64,000 bases of DNA from an uncultured Gammaproteobacteria bacterium (GCA_964568885.1 CAZMSF010000001.1:5217-69216), one strand, 5' to 3'; positions 2,083 to 63,983 are shown, counted from the stretch's first letter. The notes: generated by a model not told the origin, from the sequence alone. Made by a program: numbers and translations.

Positions 2083-2177
2083 TCTGCGAAGCAGACCAAG
2101 CTTTGCTTACCGTTAGACGAACCGACAATATTTTCTCGATAGGTCTAACGGCGAACTCATTAGACGAACCGACAATA
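2083..2177. repeat. Hairpin-rich region upstream of the tRNA: GTCTGCGAAGCAGAC hairpin, palindromic element CAAGCTTTGCTTAC, and two copies of TTAGACGAACCGACAATA that resemble the tRNA D-arm region
   Basis: Direct repeats at 2113-2130 and 2160-2177; inverted repeat CCGTTAGAC/GTCTAACGG; element core shared with five other loci. Confidence 0.5.
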
Positions 2178-2379: not shown

Positions 2380-3348
2380 ATGAAAAAAGTATATTATTAC
2401 AAAGGGCCAACTCCAAGAAAAAGCAACCATAGACTGGCCGCAATCCCTCTTTTTTTTATAGTTCTTATCCTTCTTCTGACGAGCGCAGGAGTATTCTATT
2501 TTCATTCTTCAAAAAAGGAAGCCGTACTGGCCGTTGAAACACAGGCAAAACCCGAAGCGGTACCGGTACCGACCATTTACAACGATGTTCTCAAGCAGAG
2601 CGTAGATAATGCGCTACGTGGAACAACCGGCAGCTATGGAATTGTAGTTAAAAATCTTGATACCGCCGAGCACTATGAGTTCAATGAACATGTGGTGTAT
2701 GACACTGCAAGCCTCTATAAATTGTGGGTAATGGCGGTCGTCTTTGAACAAGTAAAAAGTGGAAAGCTCAAGGAAGACACGGTACTCAGCCAGGACGTAA
2801 GCGTTCTTAATAAGAAATTCAATATTGCGAGTGATTCTGCCGGTCTTACCGAGGGTTCCGTTACCCTTACGGTGAAAGACGCGCTTTACAAAATGATAAC
2901 GATATCCGACAACTATGCAGCAATGCTTTTGACCCAAAAGGTTGGACTTTCCACCATAACTTCTTACCTTTCAAGGAATGGATTCTATGAAACAAAAATG
3001 GGAGCAACGGTAAATCTTCCGACCACTACTCCTCACGATGTCGCTTTGTTTTTTGAAAAATTGTATGGAAATAAACTGGGAGATAAAACTTCAACAGACA
3101 AAATGTTGGAGCTTTTGAAAGACCAGAAGCTCAACAACAAGATTCCAAGATATCTGCCGGATGACATCGTCATTGCTCATAAAACCGGGGAATTGGACGA
3201 ATATACCCACGACGCTGGGCTTATACTTGATGCACGGGGAAATTATCTCATCGTCATTATGTCAAAGAGTGAAAAACCCGACTTGGCGGCTAACCGCATT
3301 GCAGACATTTCAAAAGCAATCTACTCGCACTACATAGACAAAAAGTAG
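2380..3348 (+). CDS. Serine hydrolase, class A beta-lactamase-like / PBP superfamily, membrane-anchored
   Basis: SxxK (SLYK), SDN and KTG motifs in canonical order; N-terminal TM. Confidence 0.7.
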   Translation: MKKVYYYKGPTPRKSNHRLAAIPLFFIVLILLLTSAGVFYFHSSKKEAVLAVETQAKPEAVPVPTIYNDVLKQSVDNALRGTTGSYGIVVKNLDTAEHYEFNEHVVYDTASLYKLWVMAVVFEQVKSGKLKEDTVLSQDVSVLNKKFNIASDSAGLTEGSVTLTVKDALYKMITISDNYAAMLLTQKVGLSTITSYLSRNGFYETKMGATVNLPTTTPHDVALFFEKLYGNKLGDKTSTDKMLELLKDQKLNNKIPRYLPDDIVIAHKTGELDEYTHDAGLILDARGNYLIVIMSKSEKPDLAANRIADISKAIYSHYIDKK

Positions 3349-44792: not shown

Positions 44793-46514
44793 ATGCTTCT
44801 TTTAATTATATTTGCTTTCATAGCGGGTTTTGTAACCGTACTCTCCCCCTGCATCCTGCCTGTTCTACCTATTGTTCTTTCGGGTTCTCTTCAAGGGGGT
44901 CACAGACGGCCAATAGGCATAGTAACGGGTTTTATAGTGAGCTTTTCTCTTTTTACTTTGTTTCTTACAGCTTTAGTTAAGGCGACGGGTATTCCGGCAG
45001 ATTTTTTAAGAACTCTTTCTGTAGTAATTATTGTTTTATTTGGATTCAGCTTGTTACTACCAAATTTTCAGGTTCTTATGGAAAAAATATTTACAAAGCT
45101 ATCAGGTCTTGTTTCAAGGAATTCAACACAAGCAACAGGATTTTGGAGCGGCCTTGTACTCGGAGTTAGCCTGGGGTTAGTGTGGACTCCCTGCGTTGGA
45201 CCAATTATTGCTTCGGTAATAACTTTGGCTGCAACAAGCTCAGTGAACGGAAGCTCAATTTTAATTACTTTTGCTTACAGTCTTGGTACCGCAATACCAA
45301 TGTTTGCCATCACTTACGGAGGGCGTACTCTTTTGCAAAAAGTGCCTTTCTTGCTTAAAAATACCACAAATATCCAAAAGGCATTTGGGATCCTCATGAT
45401 TTTAGTTGCTGTAGGTATTTTCTTTAATTTAGATAGAAAATTTCAAACCCTGGTGCTTGATAAATTTCCACTCTATGGAACCGGTCTAACTAAAATAGAA
45501 GACAATGACCTCGTCAAAAACTCTTTAAAAGCTTTAAATGCACCACAAGTCGACAAAAATATGATAGGCAAACCAATGCCTGATAATAACCAGTATCCGT
45601 CTGCTCCTGAAATAATAACAGGAGGCAAATGGTTTAATTCGCAACCCTTAACGGTCTCAAGCCTCAAGGGAAAGGTGGTTCTTGTCGATTTCTGGACGTA
45701 TACCTGCATAAATTGCATAAGAACTCTACCCTACATAAAAGCGTGGAATGAAAAATATAAAGACAAAGGGCTTGTCATAATTGGGGTTCACACACCCGAA
45801 TTTGAATTCGAAAAGAATGCAAACAACGTAGAGAAAGCTTTGAAAGACTTTAAGATAACTTACCCCGTTGTTCAGGATAATGATTATGCCACATGGAACT
45901 CATACGAAAATCAGTATTGGCCTGCAAAATATCTTATCGATAAGAACGGGAAGATACGGATGACCCATTTTGGCGAAGGAGAATACGATGCGACAGAGAA
46001 AAAAATTCAGGAATTACTGAAAGAAACAGGAGCAACGGTAAATGAAAAAGTCCAAAACAAAGAATACACCGTCGACACACTCTCTCCCGAAACCTATTTG
46101 GGGTATGACAGACTCGGTAATTTCGCCTCAAAAGAGCAGGCACAACTCGACACCGTCTTCACGTATTCTCTTCCCGACAAGCTTTCATTTAATGCTTTTG
46201 CTTACGAGGGGAAATGGAACATCGGACGTACGACTGCTATGCCTTTCTCAAATTCATTACTCGCGTATCATTTTAATGCTAAAGACGTCTACCTTGTCAT
46301 AAACAGCAAAAACGGTAATTCCAAGATAAAAGTGTTGTTAGATGGCATTATGCTACCGGAAAATCAGGCTGGAGATGACGTAAGCGGCGGAGAGGTGACC
46401 GTGAATGAAAACAGACTTTATCACTTACTCCATTTTCAGAAAGCGGAAGAGCACGTTTTGCAGCTTATTTTTCTCGACGACAATTCCATGGTGTTTGCTT
46501 TCACCTTTGGGTAA
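44793..46514 (+). CDS. DipZ-like fusion: CcdA/DsbD-type thiol-disulfide transporter domain plus thioredoxin-like (redoxin) domain plus C-terminal domain
   Basis: LSPCILPVLP CcdA motif, second Cys region (TPCVGP), redoxin WTYTCINC CxxC. Confidence 0.75.
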   Translation: MLLLIIFAFIAGFVTVLSPCILPVLPIVLSGSLQGGHRRPIGIVTGFIVSFSLFTLFLTALVKATGIPADFLRTLSVVIIVLFGFSLLLPNFQVLMEKIFTKLSGLVSRNSTQATGFWSGLVLGVSLGLVWTPCVGPIIASVITLAATSSVNGSSILITFAYSLGTAIPMFAITYGGRTLLQKVPFLLKNTTNIQKAFGILMILVAVGIFFNLDRKFQTLVLDKFPLYGTGLTKIEDNDLVKNSLKALNAPQVDKNMIGKPMPDNNQYPSAPEIITGGKWFNSQPLTVSSLKGKVVLVDFWTYTCINCIRTLPYIKAWNEKYKDKGLVIIGVHTPEFEFEKNANNVEKALKDFKITYPVVQDNDYATWNSYENQYWPAKYLIDKNGKIRMTHFGEGEYDATEKKIQELLKETGATVNEKVQNKEYTVDTLSPETYLGYDRLGNFASKEQAQLDTVFTYSLPDKLSFNAFAYEGKWNIGRTTAMPFSNSLLAYHFNAKDVYLVINSKNGNSKIKVLLDGIMLPENQAGDDVSGGEVTVNENRLYHLLHFQKAEEHVLQLIFLDDNSMVFAFTFG

Positions 46515-46563
46515 CAAAGGCAAGCTCTGCTTACCTTTGGGTAACAAAGGCAAGCTCAGCTTA
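46504..46563. repeat. 30-nt tandem direct repeat (2 units, 29/30 identical) spanning the stop codons of convergent dipZ-like and murF genes; contains the GCAAGCTCTGCTTAC element and CCTTTG/CAAAGG hairpin
   Basis: CCTTTGGGTAACAAAGGCAAGCTCTGCTTA at 46504-46533 and again at 46534-46563. Confidence 0.7.
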
Positions 46564-47932
46564 CAGAGAAGAAATCTTGCTTTGTCTTCATCCAATAATC
46601 TTCTTGCCGGGTCAGCTGCTTCGCATCCAGAGGATTTTCAAGCAAAAATTTGATTGCCTCCTCAAGATACAATGTATTTTGGGAGCCCTTCACAAGCACT
46701 ATCGCATTCTCGGGAAGCTCTTCCTTTATATGAAGCGCTGCTTGCACGGCATTCTTGTAGGCCTCAACCTTCCTTGTTTTCCCTTTCTTACCGACAAATT
46801 CCTTCACACGAGGGACAACGAATTCAGTCGTTAAAGGGCCTACACAGTACAGCTCGTCAACCACCCCAATCAATGCCCCTGCAACCTCCTCATGCTCGGC
46901 TTTAGACTCGTTCCCAAGCTCTCTCATGTCCCCCATTAGAAATACAGCAGGTCTTCCTGTTTTTTCCTTAAGATTTTTTAAAAGCTCAAGAAAGGAAAGC
47001 ACGGTGCTTTTTGAGGAGTTGTACGATGAATCGATGATAAGAGAATTCTTAATCCCGGCAAATAGTGACGAACGTCCTTTGGGAATAGTAAAATTTTTCT
47101 CCAGCGCTTCTTTTATTTGAGAGTAGGACAATCCAAGAGCGTGAGCAGCCAAGAGAACAGATGCAAAACTTTCCCGGGACGCAGGGGGCAGTAACACTCC
47201 GGGAAATGAAAGTTCAAGTGTCCTATTCATTTTTTGGCCCGGAATTATGTAAGTAAATTTTGTTTTCTTGGTTGTGACAGCATAATCTCCATAGTAAATT
47301 GAATTCCTCTTGTCCGTTCCGAACGTTTGAAGAATCAAAGACTCACTTCTGGCCTTTTTTTCAATTTTTTCGACCAACCGCAAATCATCTTTGTTATAAA
47401 TTCCCACTTTTGTGTATCCGTTGGTGATGATTTTGCTATCCTCCTCGGCAATTTTTCCTAATATGAACTCGAGAGAGTCTTTTGTGTGTTTTTTGAGAAG
47501 TTTTTCGAATTGAGCAGTATGTGTTGCTGTTGCATTTAAATCAATACTCATATCGGGCTTTACTATCGTCAGAAGATAGGACATGTTTTTGGGGGGATAC
47601 GGATCATCAATGCCCATTTCTACGATAAGATGAGTTATCCCCTTGAGGTGATGGAGTCTGAATGGCGCCCTTAATAGAGTTTTTAGCCAATTCCTTTTGT
47701 CAAACCCTGCAATATCAATGCCAAGAATGCCAAGAGGAACTCCAGTTTCAGAATTTCCACTTACCACTTCCGTCTTGAAAAAATCCTTCAACGCAGCCTG
47801 GAGTGCATTTCTGGTTGATGATTTGCCTACAGAACCTGCCACACCGATAACATATGGCCTATGAAGCATCAGAGCAAGCCTTGCCCAAAGCCGAAGATAT
47901 GATAATACCACTTTCACGAGAAAATCCCGCAT
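46556..47932 (-). CDS. murF: UDP-N-acetylmuramoyl-tripeptide--D-alanyl-D-alanine ligase
   Basis: Mur ligase P-loop IGVAGSVGKSST and C-terminal FLMGDMRELGNESKAEHEEV block. Confidence 0.7.
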   Translation of the reverse strand: MRDFLVKVVLSYLRLWARLALMLHRPYVIGVAGSVGKSSTRNALQAALKDFFKTEVVSGNSETGVPLGILGIDIAGFDKRNWLKTLLRAPFRLHHLKGITHLIVEMGIDDPYPPKNMSYLLTIVKPDMSIDLNATATHTAQFEKLLKKHTKDSLEFILGKIAEEDSKIITNGYTKVGIYNKDDLRLVEKIEKKARSESLILQTFGTDKRNSIYYGDYAVTTKKTKFTYIIPGQKMNRTLELSFPGVLLPPASRESFASVLLAAHALGLSYSQIKEALEKNFTIPKGRSSLFAGIKNSLIIDSSYNSSKSTVLSFLELLKNLKEKTGRPAVFLMGDMRELGNESKAEHEEVAGALIGVVDELYCVGPLTTEFVVPRVKEFVGKKGKTRKVEAYKNAVQAALHIKEELPENAIVLVKGSQNTLYLEEAIKFLLENPLDAKQLTRQEDYWMKTKQDFFSVS

Positions 47933-52645: not shown

Positions 52646-52676
52646 TTTTTAAGTGTAGCAGAAAACTGAAAACTAT

Positions 52677-52765
52677 TACCAGTCCTTGCGAGAAGCAGAG
52701 CTTGCAGGCTCGATTGCTACCAATCATTTTTGTAAGCAAAGCTTGCAAAAAACCCTTACCAGTCT
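52677..52765. repeat. Intergenic repeat block: two copies of the palindromic element (GAAGCAGAGCTTGC and GTAAGCAAAGCTTGC) flanked by TTACCAGTC direct repeats
   Basis: TTACCAGTC at 52677-52685 and 52757-52765; element copies at 52692-52705 and 52732-52746. Confidence 0.45.
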
Positions 52766-53955: not shown

Positions 53956-54014
53956 GAGTCTATTCTAACACTTCAAAACAACCCATTTGTTTTGTAAAAT
54001 AGACAAACATAAAG

Positions 54015-54069
54015 AAGTTAGGGCCCGTAGTTCACCGGTAAGCAAAGCTTGCCGCTGCACTCGGGTCAG
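54015..54069 (+). pseudogene. tRNA-Ala 5'-fragment copy (26 nt identical to the real gene start plus 6-nt flank) fused to palindromic element and a degenerate acceptor 3' strand
   Basis: AAGTTAGGGCCCGTAGTTCACCGGTA at 54015-54040 is identical to 54070-54095; followed by AGCAAAGCTTGCCG hairpin and CTCGGGTCAG. Confidence 0.6.
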
Positions 54070-54075
54070 AAGTTA

Positions 54076-54146
54076 GGGCCCGTAGTTCACCGGTAGAATG
54101 CATCCATGGCATGGATGAGAAAGGAGTTCGATTCTCCTCGGGTCCA
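54076..54146 (+). tRNA. tRNA-Ala: tRNA-Ala (anticodon GGC)
   Basis: Acceptor GGGCCCG/CGGGTCC with G3:U70, anticodon stem CATCC/GGATG with loop ATGGCAT, T-arm AGGAGTTCGATTCTCCT. Confidence 0.8.
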
Positions 54147-54148
54147 CA

Positions 54149-54275
54149 ACAAAGTGAAAAGGTGAGCTTGTTGCGAGCAACCGGCTGCGCCGGAACGAAT
54201 CCCCTAAGGTCCACACCAGGAAAGGCTGTTGTTTGCAGCAACTGACTGCGTCAGAACGATTCTCCTCGGGTCCAC
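54149..54275 (+). repeat. Two tandem degenerate units of about 60 nt, each ending in a copy of the tRNA-Ala 3' end (GGTCCACA)
   Basis: CGGAACGAATCCCCTAAGGTCCACA (54191-54215) and CAGAACGATTCTCCTCGGGTCCACA (54251-54275) versus tRNA end GGAGTTCGATTCTCCTCGGGTCCACA. Confidence 0.6.
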
Positions 54276-54295
54276 AGTACCCTTTTTGATACGTA

Positions 54296-54829
54296 TTGAC
54301 AACGCGGCCTTCCGGTGGCATAGTAAGGAAAATGGAAAACAACGAAACAACTCCCTCAAAGAAAGGCATGTCTCCCATGATGATTGGCGGAATCGTTATT
54401 CTTATTATTGTTGTTATCGGTGCAATTGTCTTTATGACAAAGGGAGGCTCTAAATCGACCTCTGAAACGACCAATACCCCCAGTTCTGCACCGACGCAAG
54501 CGACTCAACAGGCACCTGCCGAGGGAAGCGCAATGGAAGAAAAGAAAGAAGGAGCCGTAAAAACTTTCACCATTGAGGCATCTAGCTTTAAATTCTCACC
54601 AAATACAATGACAGTTAATGAGGGAGATATGGTAAAAATTACTTTCAAAAACACCCAAGGGTTTCATGACTTTGCTCTCGATGAATTCAACGTCAAATCA
54701 AAGACTATTTCTGCCGGTCAGACCGAGGAAATACAATTTGTTGCAAGCAAAAAGGGATCCTTTGAATTCTATTGCTCTGTTGGTAATCACAGAGCCATGG
54801 GGATGACCGGGACACTCACCGTTAACTAA
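54296..54829 (+). CDS. Membrane-anchored cupredoxin (type-1 blue copper protein, plastocyanin/azurin-like); true start probably an internal Met
   Basis: TM anchor, S/T-rich linker, cupredoxin fold with His (GFHDF), Cys-x4-His (YCSVGNH) and Met (AMGM) ligands. Confidence 0.7.
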   Translation: MTTRPSGGIVRKMENNETTPSKKGMSPMMIGGIVILIIVVIGAIVFMTKGGSKSTSETTNTPSSAPTQATQQAPAEGSAMEEKKEGAVKTFTIEASSFKFSPNTMTVNEGDMVKITFKNTQGFHDFALDEFNVKSKTISAGQTEEIQFVASKKGSFEFYCSVGNHRAMGMTGTLTVN

Positions 54830-54894
54830 TGATGACGGCAAGCTTTGCTTACCGCTAGTTGACCATGTGGCAAGCTTTGCTCACCGTTAACTAA
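54815..54894. repeat. 15-nt exact direct repeat CTCACCGTTAACTAA (first copy is the cupredoxin gene end) flanking two copies of GGCAAGCTTTGCT
   Basis: DR at 54815-54829 and 54880-54894; near-perfect hairpin CGGCAAGCTTTGCTTACCG at 54836-54854. Confidence 0.6.
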
Positions 54895-57377: not shown

Positions 57378-57732
57378 ATTTTAAGTCACCTCCTTTACGA
57401 GTAAGATAGTTCAATTTAAGAATTTTAAACTGAAATACGTTCAAATAGCAAAAATTTGAACTTAATTAGGTTCAAATTTAATGCTCTTGAGCGTACCTTA
57501 CTAATATGCACGTTCAAAGTCCGTTTGTCAAGTACTATTTGAACCTAATTTGGAATATTGATATATTGTGTACTATTCTGAGATACTGCCGGTTGTGCTT
57601 GTGTTTGAGTTTGGCGGAAGGTAAAATAGATGGACGAAAGTGAACTGCGTTCTCTCTTCGGGGTGTAAGCCTCGCTTTAATAATAATATAAATAAAGCTC
57701 GGCTTGGCTCCCCGAAAAATGTAGTACATTTT

Positions 57733-57807
57733 TCGGGGTGTAGCTCAGTTGGATTAGAGCGCGCGCTTTGGGAGCGTGAGGTCGGAGGTTCAAGTCCTCT
57801 CACCCCG
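57733..57807 (+). tRNA. tRNA-Pro: tRNA-Pro (anticodon TGG)
   Basis: Acceptor CGGGGTG/CACCCCG, D-arm GCTCAGTTGGATTAGAGC, anticodon loop TTTGGGA, T-arm GGAGGTTCAAGTCCTCT. Confidence 0.85.
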
Positions 57808-57884
57808 ACAAAATTCAGAATCTCCGACAGGTCGGATTGTGCAAGCACAGTTTCACTGCCAAGTCCTCTCACCCCGACAAAATT
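57791..57884 (+). repeat. 24-nt exact direct repeat of the tRNA-Pro 3' end (AAGTCCTCTCACCCCGACAAAATT) separated by a 46-nt two-hairpin spacer
   Basis: Copies at 57791-57814 and 57861-57884; spacer has CCGACAGGTCGG and TGTGCAAGCACA hairpins. Confidence 0.7.
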
Positions 57885-63721: not shown

Positions 63722-63796
63722 GGGTGGAAGACGGGTGCCGCCCCCGCGACCTCAGGTTCCACAAACCTGCGCTCTACTGTTGAGCTACATCCACCG
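63722..63796 (-). tRNA. tRNA-His?: tRNA-His-like (anticodon GTG, G-1:C73) with atypical D-loop (no GG) and T-loop (GGCGGCA)
   Basis: Extra 5' G pairing with C73, acceptor GTGGATG/CTTCCAC (one mismatch), anticodon stem CAGGT/ACCTG with loop TTGTGGA, encoded CCA-like end. Confidence 0.45.
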
Positions 63797-63867
63797 AAAA
63801 ATGAAATTTTTTGGTGGCATGCAAGACAAATTTTAATTTGGCTTACATCCACCTAATCAATTTCTTG

Positions 63868-63953: not shown

Positions 63954-63983
63954 GCCCTTGCAAGCTTTTGCTTACGAGGGCAT
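63954..63983. repeat. Palindromic element copy (GCCCTTGCAAGCTTTTGCTTACGAGGGC) upstream of tRNA-Arg whose 3' arm duplicates the tRNA 5' end (TACGAGGGCA)
   Basis: TACGAGGGCA at 63974-63983 equals 63932-63941 (tRNA 5' end, plus-strand reading). Confidence 0.45.

Follow-up and report, generated by a model that had tools for sequence, protein, structure and literature searches.

A mini-palindrome family at tRNA genes and gene ends: probable insertion with re-duplication of the target upstream of a tRNA-Ala gene

Results

The tRNA-Ala locus

We analyzed a 64,000-nucleotide stretch of DNA (the window; GCA_964568885.1, CAZMSF010000001.1:5217-69216, deposited under an uncultured Gammaproteobacteria bacterium), with particular emphasis on a tRNA-Ala gene that is accompanied by fragments of its own sequence and preceded by a short palindrome belonging to a dispersed repeat family. 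RarA, encoded next to the locus, is 94% identical to its counterpart in a Candidatus Levyibacteriota metagenome-assembled genome (MAG), and the other close relatives are Levybacteria/Microgenomates-type MAGs. The functional gene, tRNA-Ala(GGC), is located on the plus strand at 54076-54147 (identified by ARAGORN and Rfam, 56.2 bits), has a G3:U70 pair and does not encode CCA.

The 5' end of this gene occurs twice. The original prediction described a repeated 26-mer, which is indeed found twice against 0 occurrences expected by chance; the exact repeat, hereafter Z (AGAAGTTAGGGCCCGTAGTTCACCGGTA), is 28 nt long and comprises an 8-nt leader (AGAAGTTA) followed by tRNA-Ala nucleotides 1-20. The left copy (54013-54040, plus strand) ends in the D-loop GGTA, and the right copy (54068-54095, plus strand) is continuous with the functional gene. 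Between them lies a 27-nt insert composed of AGCAAAGCTTGCC and GCTGCACTCGGGTC. The left copy thereby runs into GGTAAGCAAAGCTTGCC (54037-54053), the core palindrome GGTAAGC-AAA-GCTTGCC, in which GGTA is contributed by the tRNA fragment and a conserved T.G mismatch is retained, and then into GCTGCACTCGGGTC. The segment at 54054-54067, designated Z', is an imperfect inverted copy of tRNA nucleotides 2-16 and forms the right arm of a single long imperfect hairpin (54021-54067; DNA fold -11.6 kcal/mol, z -2.8), which is also obtained by RNA folding. A degenerate acceptor strand had been predicted after the palindrome, and it is present; this description is incomplete, since the right arm also complements a portion of the D-arm. 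The same pairing, together with inverted copies at the ends of open reading frames (ORFs), ruled out that Z' is merely the acceptor 3' strand of an internally deleted tRNA copy. Rfam searches at gathering and permissive thresholds returned tRNAs only, and neither the hairpin nor the two downstream units (units 2 and 3, see below) matched any known RNA family.

Before tRNA-Ala, the sole promoter-like site is TTCAAA-17-TAAAAT (53972-54000, plus strand), upstream of the left fragment, whose GTAAAAT box is kept in the related contigs L011, L012, and L035. Judging from its sequence, it may act as the promoter of the locus, and because it precedes the left fragment, the hairpin is probably part of the pre-tRNA leader. 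The array is unchanged in 9 of the 9 other contigs that carry an identical RarA and reach the locus, and also in L213, while L217 shows one single-nucleotide polymorphism, located in unit 2. An assembly artefact was therefore ruled out, and the array is real and fixed in the population.

Copies of the palindrome in the window

The core consensus, (T)GGTAAGC-ARA-GCTTGCC(A), is represented by about 10 copies in the window when looser ones are counted. For the 16-mer GGTAAGCRRAGCTTGC, 8 occurrences with at most 3 mismatches were found against 1.4 expected, and none of 100 shuffled sequences reached 8. The predicted recurrence at other tRNAs was borne out: 5 of the 7 tRNA genes in the window have a copy of their own 5' end within 130 nt upstream, followed by AGC...GCTTG and then by a partial complement, with folding z-scores of -2.8 to -4.1 for these hairpins. 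The fragment ends at GTA in position 9 (Pro, Arg, His) or at GGTA in position 20 (Ala, Gln), and in tRNAs without a D-loop GGTA the junction falls at G7-U8-A9 instead. Upstream of tRNA-Pro (57659-57714, plus strand; z -4.1), nucleotides 1-9 (CGGGGTGTA) are followed by AGCC...GGCTTG with an expanded loop and by the complement. The same architecture is found on the minus strand upstream of tRNA-Arg (63954-63981: GCCCTCGTA, AGCAAAAGCTTGC, AAGGGC) and tRNA-His (63813-63853: GGTGGATGTA, AGCC..CTTGC, ATGCCACC), and upstream of tRNA-Gln (2096-2128, minus strand) decayed tRNA-Gln nucleotides 1-20 are joined at GGTA to AGCAAAGCTTGG. The tRNA-His gene itself (63723-63794, minus strand; anticodon GTG, G-1) has the T-loop GGCGGCA rather than TTCRA; it scores 48.8 bits in Rfam and is missed by ARAGORN.

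The family is not confined to tRNA genes. Three ORF 3' ends, those of RarA, a cupredoxin, and a Mur ligase, share one layout in which the last codons and the stop are duplicated. Downstream of RarA (52676-52764, plus strand), two family copies are accompanied by repeats of its last codons and stop (TTACCAGTC...), and the corresponding sites of L013 and L014 are empty. At the cupredoxin ORF end (54815-54894, minus strand), two copies are flanked by a 15-nt duplicate of the ORF end (TTAGTTAACGGTGAG). The Mur-ligase ORF 3' end (46503-46565, minus strand) carries two tandem 30-nt units, and the TGA stop of the ORF is the loop of the first core. In this Mur-ligase-like ORF (46556-46565, minus strand; ...GTA AGC TGA), the last codon and the stop come from the element, with loop TGA in place of ARA. 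The original prediction of a miniature tRNA-targeting element thus holds as far as a repeated family is concerned, and fails in its tRNA specificity, as the target is (G)GTA and includes the three ORF ends. At ORF ends the core occurs in both orientations relative to transcription, and at tRNAs it is always in the sense orientation. The core was also considered as a -35 box for the downstream tRNA, which is unconvincing given spacings to -10-like boxes of 13 to 21 nt.

Orthologous loci in relatives

Comparison with sister genomes showed the polymorphism for which the original prediction had looked. A plain tRNA-Ala is found at the orthologous place in L013 (RarA 86% identical), L035, L023, and L018. 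In L011 (RarA 94%), a plain tRNA-Ala is followed by a second tRNA-Ala-like gene, whose D-loop is broken directly after GGTA by AGCGAAGCTTGC and a small hairpin. The palindrome site at tRNA-Ala is accordingly empty in L013, L035, L011, and L023, and it is occupied in other ways in L012 and L020. In L012 (RarA 91%), tRNA nucleotides 1-20 and AGCAAAGCTTGC are followed by a complete, very different tRNA-Ala(GGC) located between a 12-nt inverted repeat, and past this nested gene the old one resumes with nucleotides 21-29, after which come filler and the old gene's last 18 nt. From its sequence, this looks like gene replacement by insertion. The pieces of the old tRNA-Ala in L012 (nt 1-20, 21-29, 59-76; about 2700-2925, minus strand, orthologous to 54013-54276) are undecayed. 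In L020 (RarA 81%), a different tRNA-Ala sequence follows two tandem units, each consisting of nucleotides 1-20, AGCAGAGCTTGC, a complement matched to that sequence, and AGAAGTTG. Because plain, nested, and tandem states exist among sister genomes, the locus is polymorphic by sequence comparison, and the same architecture arose on different tRNA sequences. Upstream of RarA, L018 and L020 are identical over 57 nt of the promoter region while carrying different tRNA-Ala(GGC) types. L019 has tandem units of about 35 nt (CACTTCGTCTTTACGTTYCTCAG..GCAGG) on both flanks of tRNA-Ala, which represent a different repeat family.

The RarA stop varies in a similar manner: L013 and L014 are empty, two units lie in gene orientation in L012 and two in the reverse orientation in the window, and a complex cluster occupies the site in L011. 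The RarA C-terminus also differs among relatives (..KKDW or ..RRDW; 52676-52764, L011, L012), and pseudo-copies of alternative RarA ends lie between the downstream palindromes, as if the 3' end were swapped among cassettes.

Survey of metagenomic contigs

A metagenome scan for GGTAAGCARAGCTTGCC, a perfect core with GGTA, returned at least 120 contigs; all survey figures given here hold among the matches listed. After redundancy removal, 71 low-GC and 35 high-GC instances were retained. The high-GC matches lie in coding sequence and are chance-like, whereas the low-GC ones (GC 0.32-0.47) mostly show the architecture described above. Direct repeats of at least 8 nt were found in 36 low-GC and 2 high-GC instances, direct repeats of at least 15 nt in 21 and 0, and another GGTA no more than 16 nt from the core in 28 and 0, respectively. 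A same-strand tRNA start lies within 150 nt in 32 instances, with the junction at position 9 (6 instances) or 20/21 (26 instances) and nowhere else. At least 12 isotypes are represented (Phe, Cys, Asp, Gly, Leu, Lys, Ile, Pro, Gln, Thr, Val, Met).

The pairing of Z' reaches 0.62, compared with a permutation mean of 0.52 and a permutation maximum of 0.595. Pairing exceeds the permutation background over about the proximal 9 nt only, and a Z' that always extends in full length to tRNA +1 is unsupported. Mismatches in Z' are about equally often G.T (27) and A.C (22), and because these counts are similar, the decay looks like one at the DNA level rather than one shaped by selection on the RNA of one strand. 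Minimal units of 21-32 nt, consisting of AGC...TGCC, a small second hairpin, and GGTA, have a right end unlike the local flank. Tandem arrays contain 2-5 units phased on GGTA, and some units lie within the D-loop of a degenerate 5' half, behind which an intact tRNA of matching isotype follows. Outer tRNA-Ile halves were also seen around an intact inner tRNA-Ile. In L184 and L191, the outer tRNA-Ile is divided within the anticodon loop; 1 or 5 tandem 24-nt units occupy the D-loop of the 5' half, and one or two 3' halves stand beyond the inner tRNA-Ile, which has a different acceptor stem. Nested whole-gene insertion as a general rule was rejected, as a 3' repeat was found in 1 of the 26 tRNAs bearing the 5' structure.

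Several further arrangements were observed in individual contigs. Downstream of tRNA-Gly in L152 and L154, a reverse-orientation core (GCCAAGCTTTGCTTACC) is joined directly to a duplicated tRNA 3' end (TACCCGCTCA). TACC is present in the acceptor 3' strand, and the arrangement therefore represents the architecture described above on the opposite strand. Past tRNA-Phe or tRNA-Asp in L101, L125, and L162, a terminator-like hairpin precedes an inverted duplicate of the 3' end of the same tRNA; in L125 this duplicate is broken by a GTAAGG..CCTTAC palindrome. A unit of about 75 nt (core, CCTGCGTTGG.., terminator-like hairpin, ..ACCTTCCTTGTGGTA) stands after the same ...CCTTGTGGTA in the diverged contigs L105, L121, L129, L155, L171, and L203, sometimes in tandem. 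In L094, L098, L115, L131, L180, and others, -10-like boxes (TAGTAT, TAAAAT, TATATT) end 3-8 nt before tRNA +1, which suggests that the 5' leaders of certain of these tRNAs may be very short or missing.

Downstream units of the tRNA-Ala locus

Downstream of the functional gene, two units had been described as mutually degenerate and as ending in tRNA-Ala 3'-end look-alikes, and both points were confirmed: 54168-54215 and 54229-54276 are 77% alike across 48 nt, and CGATTCTCCTCGGGTCCACA is found exactly at 54129-54148 and 54257-54276, with an 80% match at 54196-54215. The claim that the inserts are rich in hairpins applies to the upstream hairpin and to small local stems; taken whole, units 2 and 3 fold no better than shuffled sequences (z about 0). 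The idea that both units are serial copies of the tRNA terminus stands for unit 3 only.

Unit 2 (54149-54215, plus strand) corresponds in alignments with relatives to the 3' half of a second tRNA-Ala gene of the type GGGCCTT...AAGGTCCA. Alignment pairs it with the second L011 tRNA-Ala over the 3' half of that gene, which is more complete than unit 2 yet interrupted in the D-loop, and with intact genes of the same type in L017 and L022 (GAAAAGGTGAGGGGTTCGAATCCCCTAAGGTCCACA). In unit 2, GGGGTT, the 5' strand of the T-stem, is replaced by about 30 nt holding a pair of small stems; this decayed form recurs in L012, with stems at the same places and different sequences. Because of these alignments and the shared decayed form, we identify unit 2 from its sequence as an inherited, decaying pseudogene remnant of a different tRNA-Ala paralogue, and not as a copy of the end of the functional tRNA.

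Unit 3 (54216-54276, plus strand) consists of unit-2-like filler and, after it, 20 nt (54257-54276) that are identical to the final 18 nt of the tRNA plus 2 trailer nucleotides (54129-54148); it is absent from L011 and L012. By sequence, it is a separate, lineage-specific partial duplication of the tRNA-Ala 3' end with its breakpoint in the T-loop. Comparable 3' repeats are an exact 25-nt copy of the tRNA-Pro 3' end, including 7 trailer nucleotides (57860-57884, plus strand; original at 57791-57815), and a 20-nt repeat in L020 including 4 trailer bases; their breakpoints fall in the T-loop, at positions 55-58. The dispersed core is absent from the fillers of units 2 and 3, and these downstream duplications may have a cause of their own. 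That the hairpins of units 2 and 3 form another dispersed family was rejected, as no further copy was found within the window. Retro-copying of mature tRNA fragments was rejected for the 3' repeats, which contain trailer bases and no CCA, and is unlikely for the 5' repeats, which contain leader bases.

Search for associated enzymes and earlier descriptions

In agreement with the original prediction of no integrase nearby, no integrase, other recombinase, transposase, or reverse transcriptase was found among the Pfam-annotated genes of the 64-kb window, which is the sequence of this genome that was covered. No ORF lies between inverted cores, and thus no RAYT-like gene (RAYT, tyrosine transposase associated with repetitive extragenic palindromes, REP) in this position. 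Searches with tblastn for a Y1 transposase, using approximate IS608 and IS200 TnpA queries against 1.4 Mb of sequence, identified only the unrelated loci L074 and L049. A viral scan for a phage origin yielded two chance matches in high-GC coding sequence. The sole nuclease-like gene noticed in the window, a stand-alone ORF with a GIY-YIG nuclease domain (93 aa, at about 14.9 kb; L211 5767-6048, minus strand), has no evident link to the repeats. Literature searches found no published description of the core sequence or of the phenomenon; a survey of tRNA introns in Patescibacteria reports group I introns in anticodon loops only (PMC13011429).

Discussion

We consider it probable that the 5' fragment and the palindrome before tRNA-Ala represent one insertion of a dispersed, non-autonomous mini-palindrome family, accompanied by re-duplication of the upstream target. 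The family is present in Levybacteria and in other low-GC genomes, which probably belong to the candidate phyla radiation (CPR). The left neighbor of the element is always (G)GTA, and the unit extends from AGC... to the next ...GGTA, occurring singly, in tandem, or nested; in tRNA genes, the target sites are the D-loop GGTA (G18 G19 U20 A21) and the GTA of positions 7-9. About half of the cases show 8-28 bases from before the left GGTA again before the right GGTA, with sequence following the core that is partly complementary to this repeat, which results in the forward-inverted-forward order Z - Z' - Z. The duplication belongs to the insertion event itself, because in L012 and L105 the ORF would be intact even without the duplicate.

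A possible course of events can be outlined. The core may be recognized or propagated as a single-strand hairpin, as with REP and IS200-type elements, and its insertion 3' of GGTA may be coupled to short-patch DNA synthesis. This synthesis would first snap back on the palindrome, producing Z', and would then re-copy the upstream target, producing the second Z. Selection would retain insertions in tRNA genes only if the repeat reaches +1 and rebuilds the whole 5' end, leaving the order of fragment, hairpin, and intact tRNA; whole units might later move or amplify. The enzyme responsible would act in trans.

Several observations weigh against this interpretation. Neither an enzyme nor an intermediate was found in the material searched. 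Z' is imperfect (about 5 differences in 20) where the Z copies are identical (28 of 28 at tRNA-Ala), and a simple fold-back that produced both simultaneously predicts otherwise. Among the matches listed, the left border of exact identity mostly falls at +1 to -5, which is poorly explained by selection alone or by random stagger. The right end is unrelated to the flank in 14 minimal units among those matches and at the Mur-ligase site, which implies at least two processes, namely movement of whole units and local duplication. The downstream 3' duplications lack the core, and their cause may differ. The scan pattern biases the sample to young copies of the GGTA type, and the surveyed contigs were sorted by GC content. 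A functional role of the hairpin in the leader RNA, discussed below, would likewise count against it.

The main rival explanation assumes pre-formed, tRNA-specific micro-cassettes consisting of the core, a guide-like Z', a spacer, and tRNA nucleotides 1-20, which would be moved as single-stranded DNA by an HUH/Y1 enzyme acting in trans (REP-RAYT or IS200/IS605-like) or by another site-specific recombinase cutting after GGTA. Such a unit would carry its own patch for the tRNA 5' end, like the 3' patch of genomic islands, and no local fold-back synthesis would be required. We regard this as rather unlikely and retain it because Z' is imperfect while Z is perfect, the border of identity lies near +1, often exactly there, as if leader and spacer came from the donor, and some units have moved whole. 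It would also account for units bounded by GGTA on both sides, for tandem arrays phased on GGTA, for minimal units whose right ends differ from the local flank (including 46503-46565), and for the T.G asymmetry of the core, which marks the strand as in hairpins recognized as single-stranded DNA; REPs, too, begin with a (G)GTAG head and continue with a short palindrome (PMC2817692). Identity with unselected flanks, however, would not be expected of a foreign cassette, and here it reaches 8 nt of leader at tRNA-Ala and 10-15 nt at ORF ends and at GGTA|GAAT sites; IS200/IS605-type elements insert without target duplication (PMC2817692), and the search of 1.4 Mb for Y1 transposases and that for ORFs between inverted cores offer no candidate for the mobilizing enzyme. 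That the hairpin, a mimic of the tRNA 5' end with its complement, is a selected cis-element in pre-tRNA processing, folding control, or decay, with an apex that binds protein, is improbable in our judgment. The position of the promoter-like site, which places the hairpin in the 5' leader, the constant sense orientation at tRNAs, the stability of the hairpins, and a core conserved across diverse contigs speak for such a role, but close sisters differ in the presence of the hairpin, its copy number ranges from 1 to 5, the core at ORF ends takes both orientations, the mismatches show no excess of G.U over A.C, and decayed copies exist (Gln, L210).

The original prediction likened the repeats to the classic footprint of site-specific integration at a tRNA, and in a related form they could be scars of a phage or island that integrated at tRNA-Ala, duplicated its att site, and was later deleted. 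The 3' repeats at 54257, at tRNA-Pro (57860), in L020, and in L180 begin in the T-loop, which Williams reportedly established in 2002 as a crossover zone; the 3' halves in L184 and L191 begin in the anticodon loop, and L012 has a foreign tRNA within the old gene. In archaea, a 5' tRNA fragment parted from its gene by a recombinase-encoding element provides a precedent (PMC3293823). Integrases that target tRNA genes do not, however, yield a duplication of the 5' end; the inserts measure 27-50 nt, the core is shared with non-tRNA sites, trailer bases form part of the 3' repeats, a 3' repeat accompanies the 5' structure in 1 of 26 tRNAs among the matches listed, and neither the annotated window nor the viral scan points to an integrase or phage. 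We therefore find this origin very improbable. Scarcely credible is a bacterial split or intron-containing tRNA, in which fragments would be joined in trans or D-loop inserts spliced out, as in archaeal disrupted tRNAs. Forms with a D-loop insert exist (the second tRNA of L011; L119, L135, L144, L191), and the succession of a 5' fragment and a complementary stretch bears a superficial likeness to split-tRNA leaders, but an intact tRNA of the same isotype always adjoins, the fragments have no anticodon arm, the junctions have no bulge-helix-bulge geometry, no group I intron was matched, and the interrupted copies are otherwise degenerate and below Rfam detection.

Returning to insertion with re-duplication as the favored interpretation, the family is a small non-autonomous palindromic repeat that works most like REPs and the bacterial interspersed mosaic elements (BIMEs) built from them (REPIN-RAYT systems). 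These are imperfect palindromes of about 20-35 nt with a (G)GTAG-like 5' head, present in many copies, mostly intergenic and non-coding, often in tandem or inverted clusters, mobilized in trans by the Y1 enzyme RAYT (TnpA_REP), with an asymmetry of the hairpin that marks the strand (PMC2817692). The core (G)GTA-AGC-ARA-GCT-TGCC corresponds to this description as a short imperfect palindrome with a GTAG-type head and many dispersed copies. In contrast to REPs, the family occurs in CPR-like genomes, its core has only 17 nt, its GTA head lies within the stem and coincides with the junction, and it inserts inside tRNA genes and at ORF ends. Direct and inverted target duplications of 8-28 nt are seen here, with direct repeats at about half of the copies, and none in the IS200/IS605 family (PMC2817692). 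Within the sequence covered, which includes 64 kb of this genome, a RAYT gene was not seen.

Resemblance to other systems is partial. In islands and prophages that target tRNA genes, the target is likewise regenerated by a copy at the far side of the insert, and the displaced fragment forms a direct repeat; those elements, however, are kilobases in size, encode an integrase, and duplicate the 3' part, whereas the insert here is non-coding and 27-50 nt long (1/100 of the size), repeats the 5' part (nt 1-9 or 1-20), and is also found at non-tRNA GGTA sites. At the tRNA-Ala locus, unit 3 alone resembles an att remnant in repeating the 3' part of the tRNA, and no integrase was found in the annotated window. 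Miniature inverted-repeat transposable elements derived from DDE transposons have terminal inverted repeats and target duplications of fixed length, whereas here the unit ends (AGC... and ...GGTA) are not inverted repeats of each other and repeats measure anything between 4 and 28 nt. In Nostoc and further cyanobacteria, small dispersed repeats (SDR), reportedly described by Elhai and coworkers in 2008, are said to be mobile hairpin repeats of 21-27 nt, nested, in tandem, and inside conserved sequences; no enzyme is known for them, and they are not known to target the tRNA D-loop or to rebuild their target by long duplications. Our family shows no sequence relation to SDR and resembles them in small size, nesting, and tandem copies. 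Work from the Ripley, Lovett, and Roth laboratories has reportedly described template switching at quasi-palindromes and tandem inversion duplications that use palindromes already on site. The Z - Z' - Z order with a palindrome at the junction is the signature of such snap-back synthesis with a subsequent return to the template, but the palindrome at the present junctions is conserved and imported, being absent from the empty sites of L013 and L035, and the inverted copy is short and imperfect. Transposing tRNA introns and disrupted tRNAs of archaea (Fujishima et al., 2010; Sugahara et al., 2012, PMC3293823) are alike in that small structured inserts have spread among tRNA genes at non-canonical positions, the D-loop among them, and in that a 5' tRNA fragment stands beside an intact gene after a mobile-element event (PMC3293823). 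In contrast, those are RNA introns cut at bulge-helix-bulge motifs or, in Caldiarchaeum, a 1.8-kb recombinase-encoding element, whereas the functional tRNA-Ala here is uninterrupted, shows no sign of splicing and no Rfam intron match at its locus, and interrupted copies elsewhere are degenerate.

More tentatively, and as a possibility that we hold to be on the unlikely side, CPR bacteria might harbor a class of protein-free, "self-healing" mobile DNA of about 25-75 nt that homes to the universally conserved D-loop GGTA and other GGTA sites, carries or re-synthesizes the sequence it interrupts, and can ferry whole replacement tRNA genes (as in L012), by a mechanism outside the known transposase and recombinase families. 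If so, this would be a very small class of bacterial mobile DNA able to insert into the ends of essential genes without killing them, it would drive turnover and fragmentation of tRNA genes in bacteria, and it would account for the self-fragments found around tRNA genes in Levybacteria and in related genomes of low GC content. A handle toward the enzyme or replication error involved is provided by the strictness of the GGTA junction and by the forward-inverted-forward order of the repeats. Annotation of such genomes calls for caution, as pseudo-tRNA pieces and copies interrupted in the D-loop are common in them. With the replacement and nesting of tRNA genes between close relatives, the debate on "tRNA genes in pieces", so far archaeal, extends to bacteria.

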